A DNA stretch of 64,000 nt, from the NCBI GenBank assembly GCA_036267755.1, contig DATAVK010000137.1, positions 1,513 to 65,512 of the forward strand, given 5' to 3'. The position numbers and the translations under genes were made by a program. Below are positions 28,326 to 64,000 of the stretch, piece after piece. Each line of letters begins with the position of its first letter. The first letter of the stretch is position 1. This DNA is from Mycobacteriales bacterium. GTDB taxonomy: Bacteria > Actinomycetota > Actinomycetes > JAFAQI01. The notes beneath the pieces are model-generated. The model saw nothing but the letters and a program-made list of their open reading frames with translations, was not told the DNA's origin and ran no database searches.

Positions 28326-29846
28326 CTAGCGGATCCGGAGCCCGGACAGCTTCCGCCAGACGCGGTAGAGCTCGGCGTGGGCCTGTTCCGCCCGCGCCTG
28401 CTCCAGTCCGAGCAGGATCCCGTACGTGAACCCGGACTCTCCGCTGGCGGCCTGCGCCTTGATCGCGAGACCCCTCAGCAGGCCGCGGGAGACGACGCCG
28501 TCCTGGTAGTCACCGAGCAGTTCCTGAACGGCCTCGGCCCGCTTGGCGAGCCGTTTGGCGTCCTTCCCGAAATCCTCGCTGAGCGTCTCGCCGGCGTACC
28601 GAAGTCGCTTGGCGGCTTTCCGAGCGCGGTGGTGGGCGACGTCACGTTCTTCGCCTGGTGCTGCGTCCTCCGTCGCGGCGACCCGGCGCTGCAGTTTGCG
28701 GTACGCCTTCGTCACCAGCTTCGGCAGGACGTCGCGGGCGGCGCGTTGCGCTTCATCGGTGTACGGCGGATCCATGACGAACGAATCGAGCTCGGCCAGC
28801 AGCGCGCGGTACCGCGCGCCCCGCAGCGCCGTGAGCAAGCGCTTGCGGGCCGTGACGAGCTCAGGCTGCAGCGTCGACTCGATCCGCTGCTTCACGGGGC
28901 CCATCACGAGCTCGGGCGGCTGGTCGTCGACCGCCGCTGTGAAGCGCTCCAGCTGGACCTCGCGATCCCTCACGTCGCCGAGCACGCCGGCGATCCACTG
29001 AAGCTCGGCGTCGAGCGCCGCCGCCCGGGCCGGGTCGAACATCGAGTGGAAGGTCTTCAACAGGCTGCGCAACCGACGGCTGGCCACCCGCATCTTGTGG
29101 ACCGAGTCGGGAAGGTCCTGCCGCACCGTCGGATCGGCCGCCACCATCGCCTGGGCCTGCGCCGCCAGATAGCGACCGAGCACGTCCGCGGCGATTGCGC
29201 CTCTGCCGTGGCCGCCGCGGGTCATCGGGTCGGCCGGCGCAGCCGCGAGCTCGGCCACGAACAGCCGCTCGGGCCCCGCCGGGTCGGTAGGCCGACCACC
29301 GGCGGCTCGCATCGCGTCGCCGAGCGTCCGGAGCCGTTTCCGATTGCCGTTCAGTGATTCGACGCTGACCTCACGCCAGTGCTCGGCGCGTGTCTGCGCG
29401 CCCATGAGCTGGGCGTCGACGCGGTCGTCCACCAGCTGGGCTACCGGCTTGCCGTCACCCTTGTGGAACAGGTAGACGCTGCGCTCCGTGCGCAATCGCG
29501 CCACCGGTTTCGGCGCGGCGCCGCGAAGCTGGCCAGTCACGAGGTCGTTGACCTCGGCAGGCACGGTGCGGCCGCGGCCGGCCGGCCGCCACAACGGGTC
29601 GGGCTCGTCATCGAGGACAGGCGATGTGAGATACCAGCCTGGATTGATGGCATCGGTACGGCGCGACAACCGCGAGCCCGCGCGCAGCAGGCGCAGGTCG
29701 GTCGAGTCGTAGTAGACCTCGTCACGGGTCTCGGTCAGCGGCTCCTGGGGCGTGCTCAGCTCGGCACAGTGCTGGGCGATCGCCACGAGGAGATCGGCGT
29801 CGCCATCCACGTCGTACCGCTTCTGCACGCTGCGATGCTGGCGCAC
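28326..29846 (-). CDS. CYTH and CHAD domain-containing protein
   Basis: ORF 28326..30173 trimmed to the GTG at 29846 (VRQHRSVQKRYDVD...). It has an N-terminal CYTH-like region and a C-terminal CHAD helical region (VHKMRVASRRLRSLLKTF, HHRARKAAKRLRYAGE). The start is approximate. Confidence 0.8.
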   Translation of the reverse strand: MRQHRSVQKRYDVDGDADLLVAIAQHCAELSTPQEPLTETRDEVYYDSTDLRLLRAGSRLSRRTDAINPGWYLTSPVLDDEPDPLWRPAGRGRTVPAEVNDLVTGQLRGAAPKPVARLRTERSVYLFHKGDGKPVAQLVDDRVDAQLMGAQTRAEHWREVSVESLNGNRKRLRTLGDAMRAAGGRPTDPAGPERLFVAELAAAPADPMTRGGHGRGAIAADVLGRYLAAQAQAMVAADPTVRQDLPDSVHKMRVASRRLRSLLKTFHSMFDPARAAALDAELQWIAGVLGDVRDREVQLERFTAAVDDQPPELVMGPVKQRIESTLQPELVTARKRLLTALRGARYRALLAELDSFVMDPPYTDEAQRAARDVLPKLVTKAYRKLQRRVAATEDAAPGEERDVAHHRARKAAKRLRYAGETLSEDFGKDAKRLAKRAEAVQELLGDYQDGVVSRGLLRGLAIKAQAASGESGFTYGILLGLEQARAEQAHAELYRVWRKLSGLRIR

Positions 29847-30035
29847 TGCCCCTCCGTTGTCGATCCCTTGCGATCTCCAGGCTTTCTCGGCACTGTCGTG
29901 GCTAGCAGGATGACGGCCCACGGCGGGTGAACACTCGGTGAACGACCTGTTCGCCCGGCGGCATCGCCGTACCCGTGGGGCAGATTGTGCTCGGGCCGTC
30001 TGGGGCGGGATGCGTAGCCACGCAGCGGAGGTGTC

Positions 30036-30968
30036 ATGGCGAAGCAGGCAACACGACCATCGAAGTCGCAAGGCGGCCCGATCAAGGCCGCCGATCTGCA
30101 GAACGGTCTGGACGGCCACGAGATCGAGGTTCGCACCGACGAGACCGGTAACCCGGTGCTGCTCGACGGGCACGGTGAGCCAGTCGATACCTGGCGTGAG
30201 GGGTATCCCTACGACACCCGGATGACAAGGCGGGAGTACGACCGCCAGAAGCGGCTGCTGCAGATCGAGCTGCTGAAGCTCCAGTCATGGGTGAAGGCCG
30301 ACAGCCGCCGGCTCGTGATCCTCTTCGAGGGTCGTGACGCGGCCGGCAAGGGCGGCACGATCCGGCGGTTCACCGAGCATCTCAATCCCCGCGGCGCGCG
30401 CGTGGTGGCGCTCGAGAAACCCACCGAGGTGCAGCGCACCCAGTGGTACTTCCAGCGGTACGTCGAGGAGCTGCCGAGCGGCGGTGAGATCGTGCTGTTC
30501 GACCGCTCCTGGTACAACCGGGCCGGCGTCGAGCGGGTGATGGGGTTCTGCACCGACGCTGAGTACGAACGGTTCATGAGCCAGACACCGCAGCTCGAGT
30601 CGATGCTCGTCGAGGACGGGATCGACCTGGTCAAGTTCTGGTTCTCGGTGACCCAGGGTGAGCAGCTGACCCGTTTCACGCTGCGCCGGGTCGATGCCGT
30701 GAAGCAGTGGAAGCTCAGCAAGATGGACCTCGAGTCGCTCGACAAGTGGGACGACTACACCGAGGCCAAGGAGCGAATGTTCCGGAGCACCCACACCAAA
30801 GAGGCACCGTGGACGGTCGTGAAGACCAACGACAAGAAGCGAGGCCGGATCGAGGCGATGCGTTACGTGCTGTCGCGCTTCGACTACCCCGACAAGGACG
30901 CCCAGGCAGTCGGTACGCCAGACCTGTTGATCGTCGGCCCGCCCGACACGGTCCTGGAGGACCGCTGA
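30036..30968 (+). CDS. ppk2: Polyphosphate kinase 2
   Basis: 310-aa ORF with the PPK2 Walker A FEGRDAAGKGGTIRRF and RSWYNRAGVERVMGF. Confidence 0.9.
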   Translation: MAKQATRPSKSQGGPIKAADLQNGLDGHEIEVRTDETGNPVLLDGHGEPVDTWREGYPYDTRMTRREYDRQKRLLQIELLKLQSWVKADSRRLVILFEGRDAAGKGGTIRRFTEHLNPRGARVVALEKPTEVQRTQWYFQRYVEELPSGGEIVLFDRSWYNRAGVERVMGFCTDAEYERFMSQTPQLESMLVEDGIDLVKFWFSVTQGEQLTRFTLRRVDAVKQWKLSKMDLESLDKWDDYTEAKERMFRSTHTKEAPWTVVKTNDKKRGRIEAMRYVLSRFDYPDKDAQAVGTPDLLIVGPPDTVLEDR

Positions 30969-54925: not shown

Positions 54926-56116
54926 TCACTTCTTCTTGACCGTCACGCTCTTCGACTTGGCTGTTGCTGACTTGTAATGCGCGCGCTTCGCGGTGACGCG
55001 GCAGGACAGCTTCTTGCCCACCTCAGACGTCTTGAGGGTGATGGACGACTTCGTCGCCTTCTTGATCTTCTTGGAGCCGAGGTACCACTGGTAGCTGTAC
55101 GACGTCGCCTTCGGCGACCAGCTGCCCTTGCTGACCTTCTCCTTCTTACCGGCCTTGTGGGATCCGGAGAGCTTCGGCTTGGCCGTGTTGGTCAACGCGA
55201 CCTCTACGACAGTGAGCTTGGTTGCCTTGGAGACCGATGCGGCGAACAACGAACTGGTCGGGGTGAATGTTGCCGTGATCGAGTGCCTGCCCGGCAGCAG
55301 CGACGATGTCGTCAAGGTCGCGACGCCGGTCGTCTTGACCGTGACGGCCTTCCCGAGCTTCTTGCCGCTGTCCGCGAACTGCACGCTGCCGGCCGGGTGA
55401 CTACTGCCTGCCGCCTCGGTAGCGGTCAGGGTGACTTTCTTGCCTTCCTTGACCGATCCGGACGGCGACACCTTGAGCGAGGTGCTCGTGGCCGTCGCGA
55501 CTCCCGGGAACGTCTCGGTCCAGGTGCCTCCCGTGACGGCGCCACCGCTCGTCGTGATGTTGCTCACCACGATGTCCAGTGACTGATAGGTGCCGTTGGT
55601 GGAGGTCTTGACCCGGAGCTGATAGGCGTTGCCGTAGCCGTCGGTCGTGCTGGTGTCGGTGTTGGCAACATCGTCGATGTACGACGCGATGCTCTCGTCG
55701 GTGTCGTGTCCCGTAACGACCGGGCCCTTTGCGCTCTTCACGACTGCGGGGGCGCCCGAGTTCGTGACGGGGTAGGGCGTTGACACGGTCAGCTGCTCAC
55801 CGGGCCACGCGCTCGGCGCCAGGCCGTTGTGCGGGGTGTACATGTACGCGGTGGCCTTGGGGTGAGCCGTGTCCGCCTTCGACCCGACGATGTACGCGAC
55901 AGTCGGTGAGTCCATGACGCTGCCGGTCGTTACCTGGGTGCCGCTGCTGTTGTACAGCGCAAGGGTTCCGACCTCATTCACGTCCCTCGTCGCGCCGACC
56001 TCCCAGGGTGGTGGCGTGCTTCCTGAGGCGTTGGACGCGACCAATGTGGCGCCACCGGAGAACAGGAGTGTCGCTGCACCCACGGCGGCGATGGACCGAG
56101 TTACTGCGCGTGTCAT
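54926..56116 (-). CDS. Secreted surface protein: shared N-terminal domain + bacterial Ig-like domain + Lys-rich C-terminal repeat domain
   Basis: ORF 54926..56149 trimmed to the ATG at 56116, with gaaaggg upstream. It has a signal peptide and an N-domain ~55% identical by eye to that of 58280..60049. The Ig-like repeat reads VTLTATEAAGSSHPAGSVQFADSGKKLG...GRHSITATFTPTS. The C-terminus reads SWSPKATSYSYQWYLGSKKIKKAT... Confidence 0.75.
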   Translation of the reverse strand: MTRAVTRSIAAVGAATLLFSGGATLVASNASGSTPPPWEVGATRDVNEVGTLALYNSSGTQVTTGSVMDSPTVAYIVGSKADTAHPKATAYMYTPHNGLAPSAWPGEQLTVSTPYPVTNSGAPAVVKSAKGPVVTGHDTDESIASYIDDVANTDTSTTDGYGNAYQLRVKTSTNGTYQSLDIVVSNITTSGGAVTGGTWTETFPGVATATSTSLKVSPSGSVKEGKKVTLTATEAAGSSHPAGSVQFADSGKKLGKAVTVKTTGVATLTTSSLLPGRHSITATFTPTSSLFAASVSKATKLTVVEVALTNTAKPKLSGSHKAGKKEKVSKGSWSPKATSYSYQWYLGSKKIKKATKSSITLKTSEVGKKLSCRVTAKRAHYKSATAKSKSVTVKKK

Positions 56117-56243
56117 CGAGGCCCTTTCGGCTGACTCGGATAAGTACATGGTCGACTAGAACGTAGGTCCGAAAGCTGTCGTGAACACCGCACGAGTGCA
56201 CCGTTCACGGCGTCTTCATGTGGCGTACACGGACGCCTGTTCC

Positions 56244-57101
56244 TCATGTTCGGTGGCGCAGGGTGAGTGCTCCGCCCGCTGCAATGACGACCGCGAGAGC
56301 GATCACGATCCCGAGGTTTCGGCCAGTGTGCGACGGGCCCGACGACGCGGCCGAGGACGTCGCACCGGACGCGTCGGGCGAGTTGGACGCAGAGACTGCG
56401 CTGGCACCCGCCGACTGCGTTGCGCCGGGGTCCGGAGCCGCCGTCCCGTCGGCCCCGGGCTGTTGGGTCGCTCCCGGCGTTGGCTTGACCTTGAAGTCCT
56501 TCTTGGGAAGCGTCAGCGTCTCGACCGACACCGACGAGCCCGAGGTCGAGCAGTCCGCCGGTCCGGGACTGAGCTGAGTCCACCGCCCATTGCTGACCCG
56601 GAGGTACGTCGCGTCGTAGAGAATCGAGTACGGCGGTTGTTTCGGAGATCCAAGATAGATCCGGAGCTGAATCAGTCCCAGCGGCGAGAGTGGATAGTCC
56701 CCGAAATAGCTTGCGAGCGACTCGTCGATGACTGTCGCGGCCGCCATCGGATGCGACGGGTTGGTGTACCTCGCCGACGCGGTCAACTGCTCACCGCTCC
56801 AATCGCCAGGCGGCACTTGCGGTCGCGGTTGGTAGGCGAACAGCGTCGCGGTTCCCCCCTCGCCGTAACCCTTCGGCGCGGCCGTGGTGTCCACGGCCCG
56901 CCACACCACCGGCTTTGCCGAGATCGAGCCGGAGGTGATCTGCTGCCCGTTCTGGCCACACAGCGTGATTGCTCCTACCGCCGAAGAGTCGGCCGGAGGA
57001 GCGCCAGCGGCGGCGGCGGCCGGTGCCATGAAACTGACGGCGCTCACCAGGCCGGCCGATAGCACAACCCCTGCGCCCACCATCCGGCGGCTGCTCCTCA
57101 T
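56244..57101 (-). CDS. Cell-wall-sorted surface protein: shared N-terminal domain + Ser/Ala/Gly linker + PSHTG sorting signal
   Basis: 285-aa ORF with a signal peptide. The C-terminus is GPSHTG-RN-LGIVIALAVVIAAGGALTL-RHRT, that is motif, hydrophobic helix, then basic tail. The ATG overlaps the upstream stop (ATGA 57098-57101). Confidence 0.7.
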   Translation of the reverse strand: MRSSRRMVGAGVVLSAGLVSAVSFMAPAAAAAGAPPADSSAVGAITLCGQNGQQITSGSISAKPVVWRAVDTTAAPKGYGEGGTATLFAYQPRPQVPPGDWSGEQLTASARYTNPSHPMAAATVIDESLASYFGDYPLSPLGLIQLRIYLGSPKQPPYSILYDATYLRVSNGRWTQLSPGPADCSTSGSSVSVETLTLPKKDFKVKPTPGATQQPGADGTAAPDPGATQSAGASAVSASNSPDASGATSSAASSGPSHTGRNLGIVIALAVVIAAGGALTLRHRT

Positions 57102-58195
57102 GTCCTGACTCCCTGCGGCTTGGCGAGGTCACGGGATGGCTCCACTGGCCGCTTGCGTCGCCGCCGACGCGCGTAACCCCAAGCCAAGCCGAGAATCAGG
57201 AGCAGCAGGACAACGAGCAATATCCACGGGATGGCCAGGAAGTGAACGCTGGCGGTCACCGGGTGCAGTCCCGGATCGACCTGCCCCTGCAGGCCCGTCG
57301 TGTCGACCGTCACCTTGGCCGACATCCAGACTTCGGGGTAGACACCGGGCACCTTCACGGTGACGGGGTACGACGCGCCAGGCAGCAGCGCGGGGACGTC
57401 CGCGACGTGGGCCGCGGTGACCGACTCACCGAACAAGCCGTGCACGGTCACCGTCTGTGGTCCGCCGAGGATCACGTTGCCCCCGTTGTGCACGGTGTAG
57501 GTCACGGTGGCCTGACCCTTTGCGAACGGGTCGATGGGCCCGCGGTAACTGGCATGCAGCTGTTGGACGCTCAGCTGCGGATGCAGCGGACCAGTGACTC
57601 GGAAGAGGGCCTTTACGGCGATTCGCTGGTCGAACTTGACCTTCTGCTTGCTCCCCTGCCCGAAGCTTCCGGCGATGCGCCCACTCAGCGACACGACGAC
57701 CGCGCCGACGTGGTCGCCGGGTGGGGCGTTGCGCGGAACCGCAACGTGTACCGGCACGATGACTGTCGAGCGTGGCTTGACGGTGATGCGCCCAGACCCT
57801 CCCGGCGTTCCCACCGCCAGCCAGGCGCCCGCTTGCTTGCGCGGTGCCGACGGCGCGGCGTAAGCGATGGTCCCGTTCGCAGCAGCCACCGCGTCGACCG
57901 GGTAGACCTGCAGCGTCTCTGGCTTGTAACTGATGTTGAGGATCGCCAGGTGATCCGTGAGCCGTCCTCCTGGCGTGGTGCCGAAGGTGAAGTAGGGCCG
58001 GCCGTCGACGCCCAGGACCTTCTTCCCGTGGACCAGCTTCTCGCTCGCCGGGGCCGCCCCGAACGTGGCGTTGACGGTCCGCTTTCCCGCGTGCGGAGCC
58101 GCCTGGCTGGGCGCGGCCGCGATGACGGTGGCGCCGAGAGCCACTGAGACAGCGAAGGCTTTCGCGAAGCGTCGCACGTAGTAGGCCAATCTCAA
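57098..58195 (-). CDS. DUF916-like cell-surface protein with DUF3324-like C-terminal domain and TM anchor (CscA-like)
   Basis: 365-aa ORF with a TTG start at 58195 (or GTG at 58177) and a signal peptide. It has YFTFGTTPGGRLTDHLAILN, VPRNAPPGDHVGAVVV and VTYTVHNGGNVILGG. The C-terminal TM is IPWILLVVLLLLILGLAWGY followed by RRRRRKR. Confidence 0.75.
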   Translation of the reverse strand: MRLAYYVRRFAKAFAVSVALGATVIAAAPSQAAPHAGKRTVNATFGAAPASEKLVHGKKVLGVDGRPYFTFGTTPGGRLTDHLAILNISYKPETLQVYPVDAVAAANGTIAYAAPSAPRKQAGAWLAVGTPGGSGRITVKPRSTVIVPVHVAVPRNAPPGDHVGAVVVSLSGRIAGSFGQGSKQKVKFDQRIAVKALFRVTGPLHPQLSVQQLHASYRGPIDPFAKGQATVTYTVHNGGNVILGGPQTVTVHGLFGESVTAAHVADVPALLPGASYPVTVKVPGVYPEVWMSAKVTVDTTGLQGQVDPGLHPVTASVHFLAIPWILLVVLLLLILGLAWGYARRRRRKRPVEPSRDLAKPQGVRT

Positions 58196-58211
58196 TCAGT
58201 GAGGGCATGAG

Positions 58212-58252
58212 CCGGTGGGCTGGGACAGAAACTGCCTGTCCCAGCCCACCGG
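58212..58252 (-). terminator. Strong hairpin terminator after the WxL-like gene
   Basis: There is a 17-bp perfect stem, ccggtgggctgggacag (58212-58228) / ctgtcccagcccaccgg (58236-58252), with a 7-nt loop. It lies 28 nt downstream of the stop at 58280. Confidence 0.65.
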
Positions 58253-58279
58253 ATGGAGCTCAGTAGCGATACCGCCCGG

Positions 58280-60049
58280 TCAGTCGCTGACCGTGAACAG
58301 GATCGTTCCTGTGTAGGTACCCGACGCGGTCGACGTCGGCGCGTTGAGCGTGAGCACGCCGTCGTAGGTCGCGGTTCCCTCGCCACCGGCAGAGCCGCCG
58401 AGGACGGGGTGGGAGATGCCGCCACCGAGACCGGCGGAACCCGGGTCACTGACCGGGACACCGTTCGCGGCGTTGTTGTCCTGCGCTGACACCGAACCGT
58501 TGTAGCTGTTGACCGGCGTGGAACCGTCCGGGCAGGCAGCCGTGCTCTTCGAGATCTGACTCAGGCCGACGTTCTCAGGGTTGATGGTCGTGACGGCGGT
58601 CGCCGGCTGGCTCGGGTTCCCACTACCCGGAACCTGCGACAGCTGGTTGGCCTCGGCGGAAGCCGCGAACGGTGATCCACCGGAGGTCATGTCAGTGACC
58701 GTGATGCACTGGAACGTCGCGTGACCGGTCCAGAAGGTGCCGTCCGAGCTCAGCGCCAGCGTGCCCACGTCCAACGGCTTGGTGTCCGTGTACGGGGTGC
58801 TGATGACCAATGTGCCCGGCGGGATCTCACCCTGGATGGTCTGGGTGTCCGAGCATGCGGACCCGGTGGCGGCGCAGGCGCCGGTCGCCGGGGTCGAGGT
58901 GATGAAGGTCACCGGCTGCGACTGCGACGAGTTGAAGTCGGCCGTGTCGGTCGGGGTGAACTTCGCGACCACAGAGTGCGATCCTGCGGCGAAACCACCC
59001 GGCAGCGAGAAGGTGTATGGCCCTCCGCCTGTGGTGGTCACGGTCGTCGTGCCGAGGGCCGTGGTGCTGGAGCCGTCGAAGAACGACACGCTGCCGGCCT
59101 GGGAGACGCTTCCGCTCAATGTCGCCGCAGTGCCAGTTGTCGTGTTGCCCGAGATGGTCAGCGTTGTCGTGGTCGGCGTCTTCGCTGCCTGAACGACCTG
59201 GCTCACGGTCCCGAATGATCCCGAGAAGTCCGCCGTGTCGGTCGGGGTGAACGTTGCCTTGACCGCGTGCGTGCCGACGGCCAGAGTGCTCGTGGCGAAC
59301 GTCGCCACCCCACTGCCGGAGACGGGAACCGGGCTACCCGAGTTCGTCCCGTCCACCGAGAACTGCACCGAACCAGCCTGGTGCGTGGCGCCGGAGGACT
59401 CCGTCGCGGTGAAGGTGACGTTGTCACCCGAAGTCGACGGGTTCTCCGACGAGGTCAGGCTGGTCTGGGTAGAGCTGGCCACCGCGGGGAACACCTGGGT
59501 CCAGGTGCTGCCGCTGACAGAAATGTCGGACGACCAGTACGTGCCGCTCGTCCCGGTCTTGACCCGCACCTGGTAGAGGCCGGCATAGCCGTCCGTCGTC
59601 GAGGTGTCGGTGTTCGGGTTGTCAGCGATGTAGTCCGACAGGTCCTCATCCGTTGCCGCCCCGGTCACGACCGGGTTCGAGCCCTCACCGTTGATCGGTG
59701 CCGGAGCAGAGGTGTTCGGGTACGTCGTGGACAGCGAGGACTGCTCACCGGTCCAGGCGCTCGGGGCAATCCCGTTCTTCGGGGTGTAGAAGTACAGCGT
59801 CGCCTTGGTGTGACCCGCGTCGGCGGACGAAGCGACTGTGTACGCCGCGATCGGCGCGTCGGTGATCGAGCCAGACGTGATCTGGGTGCCACTGGAGTTG
59901 TAGAACGCCAAGGTGCCGATCTCGTTCGGGTCGGTGCCCTCGAAGGGGGGTGCGGCCGCATTGGCCGCACCCGCCCCGACGAGGAGCATCGCCCCGGTCA
60001 TGGTCAGGGTTGCGGCCCCGGCCATGACTGTTGCGAAGCGCATCTTCAT
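58280..60049 (-). CDS. Secreted surface protein: shared N-terminal domain + Ig-like repeats + C-terminal WxL-like domain (CscB/C-like)
   Basis: 589-aa ORF with a signal peptide (GAGAANA|AAPP). It has two or three Ig-like repeats (GSVQFSVDG...GTHAVKATFTPTDTADF; GSVSFFDG...GSHSVVAKFTPTDTADF). The C-terminal ~200 aa show WxL-domain hallmarks (GTLVISTP...LDVGTL, ITVTDMTSG, final GTYTGTILFTVSD), but the WxL tripeptides themselves are degenerate. Confidence 0.75.
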   Translation of the reverse strand: MKMRFATVMAGAATLTMTGAMLLVGAGAANAAAPPFEGTDPNEIGTLAFYNSSGTQITSGSITDAPIAAYTVASSADAGHTKATLYFYTPKNGIAPSAWTGEQSSLSTTYPNTSAPAPINGEGSNPVVTGAATDEDLSDYIADNPNTDTSTTDGYAGLYQVRVKTGTSGTYWSSDISVSGSTWTQVFPAVASSTQTSLTSSENPSTSGDNVTFTATESSGATHQAGSVQFSVDGTNSGSPVPVSGSGVATFATSTLAVGTHAVKATFTPTDTADFSGSFGTVSQVVQAAKTPTTTTLTISGNTTTGTAATLSGSVSQAGSVSFFDGSSTTALGTTTVTTTGGGPYTFSLPGGFAAGSHSVVAKFTPTDTADFNSSQSQPVTFITSTPATGACAATGSACSDTQTIQGEIPPGTLVISTPYTDTKPLDVGTLALSSDGTFWTGHATFQCITVTDMTSGGSPFAASAEANQLSQVPGSGNPSQPATAVTTINPENVGLSQISKSTAACPDGSTPVNSYNGSVSAQDNNAANGVPVSDPGSAGLGGGISHPVLGGSAGGEGTATYDGVLTLNAPTSTASGTYTGTILFTVSD

Positions 60050-60135: not shown

Positions 60136-61347
60136 CTAGCAGCTCGTGGGGTTGACCCCACAGTCCTTGTAGCCACCGGTGGCTCCGGCGGCGGCGACCA
60201 GTGCCTGGCCGGGAGCGCTCTTGAAGTACGGCGTGCCCGCACTCGAGGAGAAGAGCGTCTGCCACAGGTTCTTGGCGATGCCGGGCTGGAACGGGGTCGA
60301 GCTCGACAGGTCCTTCTGCTTGAACACGATGAACAAGCCCCGGTTGTCGTCGTAGGCGACATTCGGCGCGGTCGAGCCGGTCGGAACCGGTCCGAGCACG
60401 GTGCCGGTGTCCATCTTGATTCCAGGACTGAGTGCAGCCCCGCCCGGGAAGGCAGTTGCCGGGTCGTGGAAGTAGCCGCTGTTGTACAGCGCCAACCGAC
60501 TGCCGGAGAACGGCACGATGGCGTCTGCGGCAGGCCCGAAGTTGCCGGAGGTGATGGCGGTCGGGTCGTTCTCCTCCGACGTCTTGACGCAGCCGCCGAG
60601 GGTGATGGTGCTCTGGCCCGCAGCGGTCTCGATGTCTGAGAGGAAGCTGCTTCGGGTGCCGGACCCGGCCTGCGGGATGATCGGGTCGATGGAGTCGCTG
60701 GACGAACCGCCGATACCCGAGTCATTCCAGTGGGTGAAGCCGGCGTCGCACTGGTACACGTGGTAGAGCTGCGCCGCAGACAGCGGCACCGCGTTGGAAC
60801 CGGTCTTCAACTCGGCCAGCTGGAGGTCCTCCGAACCGAGCTTGACGACGTGAAGGCCGCCGAAGCCGGCGGTTCCTGCAGCCGTCTCCTCGGCACCGGT
60901 CGGGAGCCGCGATGCCCGGACGTAGCTGATCTCGCCATCGGGAAACGCGGTCGTGTTGGCGTCGGCGAGTAGCGCCGCGATGCCGGCGCCCGAGCCGTTG
61001 GGACGCTGGACCGGGTTGGTCCCGGCGCGCAGCACGATCGTCGGGTTGAGCGGAAGCAGCGTCGCGTTCGTGCTGCCGTTGAGGTAGCCGGCACGAGCGT
61101 TGGCGTCCGGTGTCGCGTCGAAGCTCACCAGCTTGTTCACGTTCCCCGCGCTGTTGTAGCCGAGGTCGCCGCCCGTGTCGCCGTCCGCCCCGAAGTCCAT
61201 CAGGTACTGGACTGTGTCCGAGCCGACGCCGACGGCGTCGGCTGCTGAGGGGGCGTAGTCGGCGTGCGCCGGCGCTGCCATCGCGAAAGTCATCGCTCCG
61301 GCTGCGGCGGTGGCGAGGCCGACTCGCACCTTGGTCTTCATGCGCAT
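60136..61347 (-). CDS. Secreted PstS-fold (type-2 periplasmic binding protein, PBP_like_2) protein
   Basis: ORF 60136..61455 trimmed to the ATG at 61347, with ggaagg upstream. It has a signal peptide (AMAAPAHA|D) and PstS-like motifs GVGSDTVQYL, RPNGSGAGIAAL and PQAGSGTRSSF. There are four Cys. Confidence 0.7.
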   Translation of the reverse strand: MRMKTKVRVGLATAAAGAMTFAMAAPAHADYAPSAADAVGVGSDTVQYLMDFGADGDTGGDLGYNSAGNVNKLVSFDATPDANARAGYLNGSTNATLLPLNPTIVLRAGTNPVQRPNGSGAGIAALLADANTTAFPDGEISYVRASRLPTGAEETAAGTAGFGGLHVVKLGSEDLQLAELKTGSNAVPLSAAQLYHVYQCDAGFTHWNDSGIGGSSSDSIDPIIPQAGSGTRSSFLSDIETAAGQSTITLGGCVKTSEENDPTAITSGNFGPAADAIVPFSGSRLALYNSGYFHDPATAFPGGAALSPGIKMDTGTVLGPVPTGSTAPNVAYDDNRGLFIVFKQKDLSSSTPFQPGIAKNLWQTLFSSSAGTPYFKSAPGQALVAAAGATGGYKDCGVNPTSC

Positions 61348-61528
61348 GTGTGTGCCTTCCGTGGGTCTGTTGGTGTGCGCCTGGCGAGGTGACAATCGCG
61401 GATCCAAACCGCTACAAGGCGGTGCTTGGATGAACCGCGGATGAACCTGTCCCATCGGGCCACGGCGAACAGGACATCCCGGCGCGGGCGAGCGTCGTAG
61501 ACCGCCCCAAATGGGGGCAGAACCAGGC

Positions 61529-62521
61529 TCAGACCAGATTGGGGAGCAGCCGCAATGTCTCGCTGCTGATCAGCCAGAGCACCACAAGAACGAGCGGGGC
61601 GCCGGCCAGCCAGGCCTGCCACCTGCCCCACCGCGCATTAGCCCAGACAACCCCTGCAGCAACGAGCAGCAGGACCTGTAGCCAGAGCACGAGCGGCACG
61701 AGACCGCCGGTGTCCGAGTGCATCTCCGTCGCGGAGGTCGCGATCGTTGTGGGACGCCCGGACGGAGCCGGTTGCACGTGGCCCTTCATCGTCGCGTCGA
61801 CGAAAACCGGGCTACCGGGTGCCCACCCGCTGCGCCAGCCGCTGCCGCGTGAGGTGACCAGCGTGAGCCGGCTCGCGGTCGCCGCCAACGTCGGCGGAAG
61901 TGGGTCGCCGTTGCCGCGAACGTCGGTGACCGTATAGGTGAAGACTCCCTGGCCGGTCGTGACCGTTATCGGGTCGCCGACATGCAACGACGCTACGTGT
62001 CGGAAGGGTGCACCGAACGTCACGCTGCGGCCCATGACGACCGACACCCCGGCCTGGCCCGGAAGGGCGGTGTTCTGCTGATGGCCGGGGCCATCGCGCA
62101 TGACACCGGCCGTCGTGCCTTCGACGACGACGACGCGCCTGAGCCCGGCTTCGGGGGCGGTCATCACCGCAATCGGCGTGCCAGGCTCGATCGCCCCGCC
62201 GAAGGGCGCGACCTCCTCGGCAAGGGATTGCCGAATCGAGGCGTACAGCCGGTGCTGCGCGCTGCGCTCCTGGATCGCACTCAGTCCGATGGCGTAAACC
62301 AGCAGCCAGATCGCGATCAGACTCAGCATGGCCAGTGCGGTCACGACCGTCGTGGCCAGCGCCGAGGGTGGTGGCAGCGCATCCCCGCCGCGAGGCGGTG
62401 CCACCCAGTGCCTCACCCGGCCCGCGATCAGCCGCCAGCGTGGCTGCTGCTGCTCCGGAGCGGGATTGGGGCTGACATCGCCACTCACGGTCGTCGGCCG
62501 CGAGGTCTCGGTCGTGGTCAC
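61529..62521 (-). CDS. Sortase-fold (class E-like) membrane protein lacking the catalytic Cys and His
   Basis: 330-aa ORF with a GTG start overlapping the upstream stop (GTGA). It has an N-terminal TM and the class E-like core GPGHQQNTALPGQAGVSVVMGRSVTFGAPF...GDPITVTT...FTYTVT...RLTLVTS, plus two C-terminal TM helices. The protein has no Cys. Confidence 0.75.
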   Translation of the reverse strand: MTTTETSRPTTVSGDVSPNPAPEQQQPRWRLIAGRVRHWVAPPRGGDALPPPSALATTVVTALAMLSLIAIWLLVYAIGLSAIQERSAQHRLYASIRQSLAEEVAPFGGAIEPGTPIAVMTAPEAGLRRVVVVEGTTAGVMRDGPGHQQNTALPGQAGVSVVMGRSVTFGAPFRHVASLHVGDPITVTTGQGVFTYTVTDVRGNGDPLPPTLAATASRLTLVTSRGSGWRSGWAPGSPVFVDATMKGHVQPAPSGRPTTIATSATEMHSDTGGLVPLVLWLQVLLLVAAGVVWANARWGRWQAWLAGAPLVLVVLWLISSETLRLLPNLV

Positions 62522-64000
62522 CGGGCTCGCCGCCAGTAGCGCAGTCGGACGATGAGCGGCGCGAGCAACCCTGACAGCAAGGCAAGGCCGAGGAGTGCGG
62601 GGAGCGCCGTACCGGCGACCGACGACGAGGCAGCGGCCGTGGTCCCTGGCGAAGTGGCCGGCGATGAGCCGGCGACCTGCGGTGTGGTGCCCTTACCAGG
62701 CTTCCCCGTCTTGTCCGACCCGGCCGGTGGGGTGGCGGTGTCCCCGCCACCGCCCGTGCCATCTCCGCCACCCGCTGACGAACCGGTGCCTGAACCTGTT
62801 CCGGGCCCGGTCCCTGTCTGACCGCCCGAGTTCGAGCCCACGAGCGACGGCAGCGCGCCGTGCTGGGCTTGGACCGCAGCTGCCGCCCGGGTGGTGTACG
62901 ACGCAAGCTGGCCCAACCCGGCTGCCTTGGTCATCGGGAGATATCCAGGCGGCAGCTGGCCGTTGCCGAAGCCTCTGACCTGACCGTCGGTCGCGGCGTA
63001 CCTCAGCAGCTTCGCGTAGTCGGCGGCGACGCCCTTGGGCAGACCCTTGGTGGGGACGGCCGTGTAGACGATCATCGTGCCGGGATACGCCTTGGCGCCG
63101 GCGGGCGTGGTGCGCATTGTGGTGGCGTTGATGGGCCAGGTACCCGTCGCCGAATCGGGCTTGGCCAGGTCGATCGCCGCTTTCATCGACGCATCGGTCG
63201 GACTCACGAACACGCGTCCGGCCGAACTCGTGAACTTCGCTGAGGCGGTCGGCGCGGTCTGGGTCTCCAGCGACGCCATGTCGAGCCGGTAGCGCTGGGC
63301 GTCCGCGATCGAGGTCACACCGAGCATGAAGCGGAAGCCCGGGTTCTGGCGGCCGATCGAGATCAGTTTCTCGCCCGCGCTCACCCCCTGCAACGGCTGC
63401 GAGCAGACGGTCTGGGAGTTGGCGATGGCGAACTGCATCGCGAGTGAGATCTGGCTCAGCCGCTGGACCGGTGCCGCGACGAGCGGAAGGTAAGGCACCG
63501 GGGTGTTGAACAGGCAGTCGTTGAGCCCCGGCTGGTAGATGTCCTTGGGCTCGTACGTGTCGAGCAACGGCCAGGTGTTCAGGGGGAGCTTGATGCCGCG
63601 ATAAGCCTTGTTGACGACCATCCCCCAGGGGTCCGGCTTCCCGTTCAGCCAGGCGCGCGCCTCCGGGTCGGCATTGATGTAGGAGGTGAGTGCGTACATC
63701 ACGTCCGACTCGCTGGAGAGGCTGAGAAGGGTTGCTGCCACTTGAGAAGACGTCGAGATGCCTGGGTTGAGCGCCTGGAACTCCGGATCCTCGGTGATAT
63801 TCAGCGGGTTGTGGGACAGCGCCTTGTCGCCGGTCTGGATATCCGTCAGGGCGGGATATGACTCGGTCATGAGCTTCGCAAGCAGTCGCGGGTCGAGCTT
63901 GAGCGTGGCGACCGGCCGGCCCTCTACATTGTCGACGTCGAAGGTGACCGCGAAGCCGGAGACGGCCGTGGGTGCGTTGACGGTCGGCTCGGGGTATCCC
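62518..64000 (-). CDS. Large membrane-anchored surface protein with PstS/PBP-like C-terminal half; 5' end outside the window
   Basis: The frame stays open upstream of the Met at 63870, to position 63999 (GYPEPTVNAPTAVSGFAVTFDVDNVEG...). It has the PBP-like segment AYPGTMIVYTAVP...LLRYAATDGQ...LPPGYLPM, a Gly/Thr/Ser-rich linker, and a C-terminal TM LPALLGLALLSGLLAPLIV followed by RLRYWRRAR. Confidence 0.6.
   Translation of the reverse strand, partial: GYPEPTVNAPTAVSGFAVTFDVDNVEGRPVATLKLDPRLLAKLMTESYPALTDIQTGDKALSHNPLNITEDPEFQALNPGISTSSQVAATLLSLSSESDVMYALTSYINADPEARAWLNGKPDPWGMVVNKAYRGIKLPLNTWPLLDTYEPKDIYQPGLNDCLFNTPVPYLPLVAAPVQRLSQISLAMQFAIANSQTVCSQPLQGVSAGEKLISIGRQNPGFRFMLGVTSIADAQRYRLDMASLETQTAPTASAKFTSSAGRVFVSPTDASMKAAIDLAKPDSATGTWPINATTMRTTPAGAKAYPGTMIVYTAVPTKGLPKGVAADYAKLLRYAATDGQVRGFGNGQLPPGYLPMTKAAGLGQLASYTTRAAAAVQAQHGALPSLVGSNSGGQTGTGPGTGSGTGSSAGGGDGTGGGGDTATPPAGSDKTGKPGKGTTPQVAGSSPATSPGTTAAASSSVAGTALPALLGLALLSGLLAPLIVRLRYWRRAR

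Follow-up and report, generated by a model that had tools for sequence, protein, structure and literature searches.

The sortases, a textbook case of cysteine transpeptidases, also serve as drug targets; in SaSrtA their catalytic positions are H120 (after strand β4), C184 (in TLxTC) and R197 (on β8). The actinobacterial class E enzymes (SrtE1/SrtE2 of Streptomyces coelicolor and SrtE of S. avermitilis; Protein Data Bank (PDB) entries 5cuw and 5go5/5go6; NCBIfam NF033747) possess an N-terminal cytoplasmic extension followed by a transmembrane (TM) anchor, and this N-terminal anchor is the only one in characterised sortases. In S. coelicolor SrtE1 the catalytic residues are His251, Cys320 and Arg329, and the class-E determinant Tyr229, which reads the Ala of LAxTG, lies in the β3/β4 loop, right after the ‘GH’ of strand β3 (PMC5148588). 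Here we describe a membrane protein of 330 residues that has the fold of these enzymes, has lost their whole catalytic triad and is encoded in the operon of a Pst-type ATP-binding cassette (ABC) importer. Its gene lies on the minus strand, at 61529..62521, of a 64,000-nt stretch of contig DATAVK010000137.1 from a Mycobacteriales bacterium (assembly GCA_036267755.1), referred to below as the window; we call the protein the pseudo-sortase.

On the transporter side, tethering of the OpuA/GlnPQ type relies on a lipid anchor or on direct fusion of the binding domain to the permease. The operon studied here is closest to the Pst importer (PstSCAB; cryo-EM structure 9k3x for Escherichia coli; PstS-1/PstS3 of Mycobacterium tuberculosis), which it resembles in its PstC and PstA partners, in a PstB and a PstS that score near the family cutoffs and in the PstS fold of a large protein, Big916, encoded next to the pseudo-sortase. 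It differs from that importer in its gene order (pstC-pstA-pstS-...-pstB), in having a PstS that is TM-anchored rather than a lipoprotein and in two extra, divergent PstS-fold proteins. We know of no sortase-fold membrane protein in described Pst systems, and a full-text literature search, the coverage of which is incomplete, returned nothing on pseudo-sortases, on inactive or Cys-less sortases or on a sortase together with pstS. The fold and the transporter are thus each familiar, while their combination and the role of a dead enzyme as an adaptor would be new.

The open reading frame (ORF) starts with GTG and its product contains no cysteine at all. Its elements are listed below, with the evidence for each in parentheses.

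61529..62521, minus strand: coding sequence of the pseudo-sortase, 330 residues (ORF, Pfam, phmmer, model and Foldseek)
62357..62521, minus strand: N-terminal region, residues 1–55, variable, Arg-rich and presumably cytoplasmic (predicted local distance difference test, pLDDT, of 47–75 in the model; positive-inside rule)
62219..62362, minus strand: long helix, residues 54–101, made of TM1 (about residues 57–80) and a conserved extra-membrane stalk (model and alignment)
61772..62188, minus strand: eight-stranded sortase β-barrel domain, residues 112–250 approximately (Pfam, model, Foldseek and profile alignment)
62078..62080, minus strand: Gln148, at the position of SrtE1 Tyr229 (alignments and PMC5148588)
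62027..62029, minus strand: Arg165, in place of the catalytic His (codon and alignments)
61850..61852, minus strand: Ser224, in place of the catalytic Cys, with TLVTS for TLxTC (codon and alignments)
61808..61810, minus strand: Pro238, in place of the catalytic Arg (profile alignment and family representatives)
61535..61711, minus strand: C-terminal TM hairpin, helices of residues 271–298 and 300–329 (model and alignments)

A preliminary description of this DNA, made by eye from the letters alone, had proposed a sortase fold devoid of cysteine, in which thioester chemistry would be impossible. Both points hold. Pfam PF04203 (Sortase) matches the product with 47.8 bits (E = 1.5e-12; gathering cutoff 26.6), over model positions 3–84 of 125 only, i.e. 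the N-terminal two thirds. A phmmer search of the PDB finds sortase E of S. avermitilis (PDB entry 5go6; E = 1.7e-11, 47 bits), the nearest solved structures being 5go5/5go6 (SrtE of S. avermitilis), 4d70 (SrtD of Clostridium perfringens) and 5uus (SrtF of Corynebacterium diphtheriae), with E values of about 1e-11 to 1e-10. The AlphaFold2 model built from a family alignment of 74 sequences (A1) has a pLDDT of 84 and a predicted TM-score (pTM) of 0.74, and when it was compared with the PDB using Foldseek all 50 of the 50 matches listed were sortases, with TM-scores of 0.81 over 4d70 (E = 2.8e-10) and 0.71 over 5go5. In the model the helix of residues ~57–80 forms an N-terminal TM anchor as in sortases, a linker separates the barrel from the C-terminal helices, and these two extra helices, which had also been noted beforehand, are present.

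The sequence carries the expected motifs G144-P-G-H147, A152-L-P-G-Q156, G164-R165-S166 and T220-L-V-T-S224 at the positions given in the preliminary description, and the codons likewise: Arg165 is encoded by CGC (nt 62027–62029, minus strand), one base change away from CAC (His), and Ser224 by TCA (nt 61850–61852, minus strand), from which any Cys codon is two substitutions away. In the HMMER pairwise alignment with 5go6, ‘VAGHRRTYGDPF’ pairs with ‘VMGRSVTFGAPF’, which places R165 at the catalytic His. The alignment of the family profile with PDB sequences runs through β7 and β8: ‘LtLvtSe’ stands opposite ‘MTIVTCT’ of 4d70 and ‘LTLVTCE’ of 5go6, so that S224 occupies the position of the catalytic Cys, and the SrtE segment ‘HSHRLIVWAHL’ stands opposite ‘sqtvyvDatl’, with P238 at the catalytic Arg. 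Finally, the class-E Tyr (Tyr229 in SrtE1) is replaced by Q148, immediately after GPGH147. With His, Cys and Arg replaced by R165, S224 and P238, respectively, the whole His–Cys–Arg triad is therefore gone, in addition to the Tyr that determines class-E specificity.

The 330-residue product is thus a member of the sortase superfamily by fold and descent, closest to class E. This class scores best among the sortases, NF033747 ranking first in NCBIfam with 72.1 bits, and the pseudo-sortase shares with it the motifs VVEGT, GPGH, LPGQxG, FGAPF and TL-V-T (the last on β7), the N-terminal cytoplasmic extension followed by a TM anchor and the actinobacterial host range. The differences are nevertheless considerable: His251, Cys320, Arg329 and Tyr229 of SrtE1 have become R165, S224, P238 and Q148, two TM helices are added at the C-terminus, and the gene lies in a pst operon instead of beside surface-protein genes, with no LAxTG substrates nearby. 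The protein is not to be filed as a class E sortase, as its catalytic residues are lost, its score is far from the NF033747 cutoff of 160 and such substrates are missing. The best structural match is in fact a class D enzyme, C. perfringens SrtD (4d70), with ‘LtLvtS’ facing ‘MTIVTC’ on β7, from which the pseudo-sortase again differs by the loss of the triad, by its membrane topology and by its genomic context. The window itself encodes no true sortase gene.

These substitutions are shared by a large family. An exhaustive HMMER search of 1.84 billion representatives yielded at least 614 clusters at 50% identity with E < 1e-30, and 680 homologues were counted among the candidates scored; one of them, P0001, is the identical protein in another public data set. 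Three samples were used to follow individual positions: the 120 closest homologues, 85 loci from GTDB species genomes and the 150 best representatives at 50% identity. Position 165, which has the role of the His, is basic nearly everywhere (R101/K18/H1 in the closest homologues, R81/K4 in the loci and R139/K11 in the representatives). Position 224, in the role of the Cys, is on the contrary variable: S64/A34/V10/T5 in the closest homologues, A54/S27/V2/T1/G1 in the loci and A98/S32/T7/V5/G4/L2/E1/F1 in the representatives, with no Cys in any of the three samples. At position 238 (the Arg role) the closest homologues have mainly T40/L17/A17/P15 and the representatives V/A/T/L/P, Arg occurring in three of the 150. 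The class-E Tyr position, 148, is L49/R32/Q19/Y6 among the closest homologues and R or L among the representatives, none of which has a Tyr. Position 223, next to the former Cys, is Thr or Ser in 149 of the 150 representatives and Ala in 16 of the 120 closest homologues.

Two groups can be told apart among the residues that vary little or not at all. One (E134-G-T, G-P-G-H147, P154-G-Q156, G158 and F173) consists of scaffold residues common to real sortases; the other (R97, R165, R202, D242, W304, W316, P327 and N328) is specific to the family, and R97, D242, W304, W316 and N328 of this group are not sortase catalytic residues. S81, Q89, Y93, R97 and L100 of the stalk are also invariant or nearly so in the family alignment. 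The TM hairpin shows a conserved basic and aromatic turn, ‘RWGxWQxW’, and a terminal ‘LLPNL’, with W304, W316, P327 and N328 invariant in the A1 alignment. According to the positive-inside rule, the N-terminus and the RWGxWQxW turn would be cytoplasmic and the barrel would face the cell wall.

The ratio of nonsynonymous to synonymous substitution rates (dN/dS) lies between 0.11 and 0.31 in nine closely related pairs, showing that the family is under purifying selection. It is found in cultured bacteria (many species of Nocardioides, Kibdelosporangium, Actinocrispum, Solihabitans, Actinosynnema, Actinophytocola, Cellulomonas and Dactylosporangium) and in metagenome-assembled genomes (MAGs) of Acidimicrobiaceae (Acidimicrobiia), Frankiales, Nanopelagicales and Mycobacteriales. 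The substitutions are a conserved and selected state, neither error nor decay. In the closest genome relative (82% identity; L006, 9797–11179, from the ‘MFD’ MAG series), the pseudo-sortase ORF runs about 138 codons beyond the usual stop, which is probably an indel artefact.

In public databases the pseudo-sortases, among the entries P0001–P0120 and P0271–P0389, bear the names ‘sortase A’ (JGI) or ‘class E sortase’ (NCBI), and the Big916 homologues appear as ‘hypothetical protein’, ‘ABC-type phosphate transport system substrate-binding protein’ or ‘YgcG’. For a protein that has no catalytic triad, the name of a sortase misleads. Hundreds of ‘class E sortase’ and ‘sortase A’ entries are almost certainly not transpeptidases, and they should be excluded from sortase counts in genome surveys and from substrate predictions.

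Genes were called in the surroundings of three homologues and the 85 loci were compared systematically, which gives a conserved core order: pstC, pstA, pstS (~541 residues), Big916 (~900–920 residues), the pseudo-sortase, a PstS-like gene that may be absent (~449 residues) and pstB. In some clades pstB lies upstream instead, together with a DUF1508-like gene. Big916 adjoins the pseudo-sortase in 82 of the 85 loci, the remaining three being cut by contig ends, and PstS is present in 74 loci, PstA in 73, PstB in 71 and PstC in 68. At locus L001, the NCBIfam equivalog scores of PstC (247, cutoff 196) and PstA (196, cutoff 193) are above the cutoffs and those of PstB (338, cutoff 343) and PstS (185, cutoff 205) slightly below. 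In Actinomycetota the pseudo-sortase is an invariant and obligatory part of this Pst-type ABC-importer operon, a fact that goes beyond the preliminary description, as do the losses of the catalytic Arg (P238) and of the class-E Tyr (Q148). The transporter would presumably carry phosphate or a phosphorylated compound. The window stops short of the transporter genes, and Big916 is cut at nt 64000. The partners of the pseudo-sortase that can be seen there are the following.

62518..64000, minus strand: last 493 codons of Big916, whose gene is truncated where the window ends (ORF; full protein P0271)
62521..62655, minus strand: C-terminal signal of Big916, with the juxtamembrane motif ‘...T..A..SSSVAGTALP’, a hydrophobic helix and an RYWRRAR tail (tail alignment)
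62518..62521, minus strand: GTGA stop/start overlap between Big916 and the pseudo-sortase (sequence)
60136..61455, minus strand: secreted PstS-like protein, PBP_like_2, ‘PBP449’ (Pfam; found with the pseudo-sortase in 60 of the 85 loci)

A 4-nt overlap of this kind (ATGA or GTGA) joins Big916 to the pseudo-sortase in about 68 of 77 loci, that of the window included, and shows that the two are translationally coupled. The preliminary description was thus right about the coupling, although the gene upstream is not that of a simple anchored PstS: what precedes the pseudo-sortase in the window is the C-terminal half of a 919-residue Big916. Wherever it covers the query, the full-length protein, P0271, shows 100% identity. 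Its model (pLDDT 84.5, pTM 0.81) begins with a signal peptide followed by a Cys-rich β domain (residues ~48–345), continues with a domain of about 460 residues whose top structural matches are M. tuberculosis PstS-1 (TM-score 0.73) and PstS3 (TM-score 0.77), and ends with a TM helix and an Arg-rich tail. The PstS-like domain and the TM helix are separated by a Ser/Thr/Pro/Gly-rich linker of about 60 residues; this linker and the conserved juxtamembrane motif are disordered in the isolated model (residues 825–885, pLDDT < 50). No phosphate-binding-protein Pfam family matches Big916 above threshold.

The C-terminal ends of the operon proteins deserve closer attention. In the alignment of 63 Big916 tails, a Thr is conserved at about 90%, some 13 residues ahead of an ‘LP’ that is conserved where the helix starts, within motifs such as ‘LGxTxG’ (in many clades) or ‘MPATQxVGS..AGGLLP’ (in Nocardioides). 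The operon PstS of ~541 residues (PstS541) is likewise anchored by a C-terminal TM helix and has no lipobox (e.g. 3632–5257 of L001, outside the window). The consensus of its signal is ‘yAnPTeLaa.R..d.rafGwLAalELLALVllPgL..RRRr’, with a Glu and a Pro within the helix, and we note the conserved ‘aNPTeL’ ahead of it. A charged residue in the single-pass anchor of PstS suggests that there is a specific partner inside the membrane. Both Big916 and PstS541 end with an S/T/P-rich linker, a motif in which a Thr is conserved, a TM helix and an Arg tail. In their arrangement these tails follow the three parts of a cell-wall sorting signal (motif, hydrophobic segment and basic tail), yet the sequence of the motif is not LPXTG or LAXTG. 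A regular-expression search for LPxTG/LAxTG followed by a TM helix and a basic tail found none in the gene cluster or elsewhere in the window, and the same search of 87 related loci matched five of 9151 ORFs, none of which is clearly a core operon protein.

Using a chimera of Big916 and the pseudo-sortase as the query, we found two clean in-frame fusions, P0162 (1211 residues) and P0282 (1214 residues), both from one lineage. They come from independent assemblies (one from contig_58800, the other from a megahit k141 contig) with an identical operon context. Big916 comes first in them, complete with TM anchor and basic tail; some 30 residues of cytoplasmic linker lead on to TM1 and the rest of the pseudo-sortase. 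The cytoplasmic tail of Big916 is joined straight to the N-terminus of the pseudo-sortase, and the topology predicted above is therefore confirmed. The fusions are classical Rosetta-stone evidence for a joint action of Big916 and the pseudo-sortase, in which the anchor helices of the two lie next to each other. Three other candidate fusions, P0281, P0308 and P0379 (Marmoricola sp. URHA0025), were dropped because of Arg-rich, frameshift-like stretches. They probably arose by frameshifting, through sequencing error or true mutation, which the 4-nt overlap would ease, and the Marmoricola case, from an isolate genome, might be a real inactivation.

Taken together, these data lead us to propose that the pseudo-sortase is a non-catalytic adaptor that holds the tail-anchored binding proteins (Big916 and perhaps PstS) at the PstC/PstA permease, with a probability that we put at roughly 0.45. 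The protein would no longer cleave any substrate. It would have kept the ancestral recognition mode of a sortase, which identifies a membrane-retained precursor by the stretch immediately external to the C-terminal TM anchor of that precursor, and this recognition, along with the conserved TM hairpin, would serve to bind the C-terminal signal of Big916 and possibly that of the tail-anchored PstS. The substrate-binding proteins would in this way be tethered beside the PstC/PstA permease by a non-covalent ‘sorting’ adaptor, in a 1:1 stoichiometry. Candidate contact sites are the always-basic residue 165, D242 on β8 and the TM hairpin. The outcome would resemble that in OpuA and GlnPQ, where binding domains are tethered or fused to the permease and are thus concentrated at the translocator; this is an analogy only, and the tether would here be a separate, enzyme-derived adaptor. 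Of the two interpretations offered in the preliminary description, we accordingly favour the scaffold or receptor for sorting signals, with the proviso that the signals of the neighbours would not be of the LAxTG/LPxTG type.

Several observations weigh against the adaptor. The conserved motifs of the tails lie 10–18 residues from the TM helix, farther than LPXTG does in classical signals, and are not LPXTG-like in sequence. A search for covariation of the PstS TM Glu and the tail with columns of the pseudo-sortase gave weak mutual information, confounded by phylogeny, and nothing convincing. The Thr or Ser at position 223 of 149 of the 150 representatives could formally act as a cryptic hydroxyl nucleophile, although 16 of the 120 closest homologues have an Ala there. 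More tentative still is the complete picture, namely a new accessory subunit of ABC importers in many Actinomycetota, in which a sortase has been turned into a permanent non-covalent receptor for a new C-terminal ‘sorting’ signal (Thr motif, TM helix and Arg tail) and gathers giant, tail-anchored proteins of PstS fold on a Pst-like permease. Should it be true, this would be the first pseudo-sortase of defined role and a new build of wall-spanning nutrient-capture apparatus. An adaptor would moreover mean that the substrate recognition of an enzyme has been reused for non-covalent assembly, and that an unexpected part has been added to the Pst phosphate uptake of soil Actinobacteria (Nocardioides, Pseudonocardiaceae and Acidimicrobiia).

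Operon membership and the signs of a pseudoenzyme are equally compatible with an accessory subunit of PstCA that has another role. It might bind the globular PstS-fold domains, or else peptidoglycan or lipid II, which real sortases use as their second substrate, and it might also gate or regulate transport. Such a subunit would account for the high conservation of the TM hairpin and of its cytoplasmic RWGxWQxW turn, which rank with the best conserved regions of the sequence and could make contacts with the permease inside the membrane, and it would not be troubled by tail motifs that are unlike LPXTG. We nevertheless think it rather unlikely, given that both the tight coupling and the fusion seen in one lineage concern Big916 specifically, and not pstC or pstA, and that the fusion joins the tail anchor of Big916 to TM1, which sets the TM helices and the juxtamembrane segments of the two proteins side by side. 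A decoy or shield, which would occupy the C-terminal signals of the operon proteins against the housekeeping sortase or proteases, or would titrate a real sortase, fits a substrate-binding fold that is kept without catalysis and tail-anchored clients encoded alongside. It seems to us very improbable, as the client tails have no LAxTG/LPxTG for a housekeeping sortase to attack, the window contains no true sortase and the strict linkage to transporter genes suggests a constructive role.

Could the protein still be an enzyme, with a nucleophile other than Cys (Ser224, Thr/Ser223 or another residue), that processes or attaches the tail-anchored proteins of the operon? The Ser found at the Cys position in the window, the almost universal Thr or Ser at 223, a His position that is basic throughout (R/K, with a single His among the 120 closest homologues) and neighbours endowed with conserved Thr-containing C-terminal signals are what might be expected of it. 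The Ser-nucleophile variant considered in the preliminary description, together with the suggestion that a conserved R165/S224 pair would argue for function, can be judged from the family: the basic residue at 165 is conserved and Ser224 is not, being present in only 64 of the 120 closest homologues, 27 of the 85 loci and 32 of the 150 representatives, with Ala the commonest residue in the last two samples (98 of the 150 representatives and 54 of the 86 aligned locus sequences, about two thirds) and Val, Gly or Leu elsewhere. A Ser nucleophile at the old Cys site is therefore excluded as the mechanism of the family. In addition, Ala replaces residue 223 in 16 of the 120 close homologues, the Arg of the oxyanion and substrate site is lost, Arg is poor as a general base and, scaffold residues common to true sortases aside, the barrel offers no further Ser, Thr, Cys, His or Lys that is invariant. 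An active enzyme thus appears improbable. As for the idea that a class E sortase was misread in sequencing or is decaying into a pseudogene, a return from CGC to CAC would take a single base change, while one from TCA to a Cys codon would take two; the identical protein exists in another data set (P0001), the frame is intact, and both the synteny and the start/stop overlap are conserved. Since hundreds of homologues carry the same substitutions and dN/dS is 0.11–0.31, error and decay are rejected, and the probability left to them is negligible.

Downstream of the pseudo-sortase, the window contains an accessory surface module (54926..60049, minus strand) that is present in about 30–40 of the 85 loci, i.e. 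a third to a half of them. It consists of the following genes.

58280–60049, minus strand: secreted Big_3_5 Ig-like protein with a WxL-like C-terminus (Pfam)
57098–58195, minus strand: WxLIP_PGBD protein with a C-terminal TM anchor (Pfam, 34.7 bits for a cutoff of 27.3)
56244–57128, minus strand: tail-anchored protein of ~289 residues, X289 (locus comparison)
54926–56155, minus strand: second Big_3_5 protein, secreted (Pfam)

One of the Big_3_5 proteins ends in ‘GTYTGTILFTVSD’ (‘YTGTILFTVSD’), an ending that we take to resemble the C-terminal WxL motif, and the Ig-like proteins of the module have no match to the Pfam WxL domain. The module looks like an actinobacterial cluster resembling the WxL/Csc surface loci of Firmicutes, in which WxL proteins accompany a DUF916 WxL-interacting protein; the likeness lies in the WxLIP_PGBD gene downstream of the pseudo-sortase, and the differences in the missing Pfam WxL match and in the accessory position of the module with respect to the pseudo-sortase core. 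X289 of the window ends with GPSHTG, a hydrophobic helix and RHRT, and ‘PSHTG’ was considered as a sorting signal and rejected, its homologues having no such motif; judging from these sequences, the GPSHTG of X289 is probably fortuitous or lineage-specific.

The other genes of the window are ordinary chromosomal ones (dnaX and those for aspartokinase, a class A penicillin-binding protein and sulfite reductase). GTTCAC-like words, similar to the actinobacterial PHO box, are about twofold enriched upstream of the first operon gene in L001–L085 compared with the loci overall; the calls of the operon start are crude and this enrichment was not used as evidence. Finally, a protein of ~650 residues with a CHAD domain (E = 7.6e-62) is encoded at 28326–30284 on the minus strand, at a distance of 30 kb from the operon. 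There is an association between CHAD domains and polyphosphate, and this protein may be relevant to phosphate metabolism.

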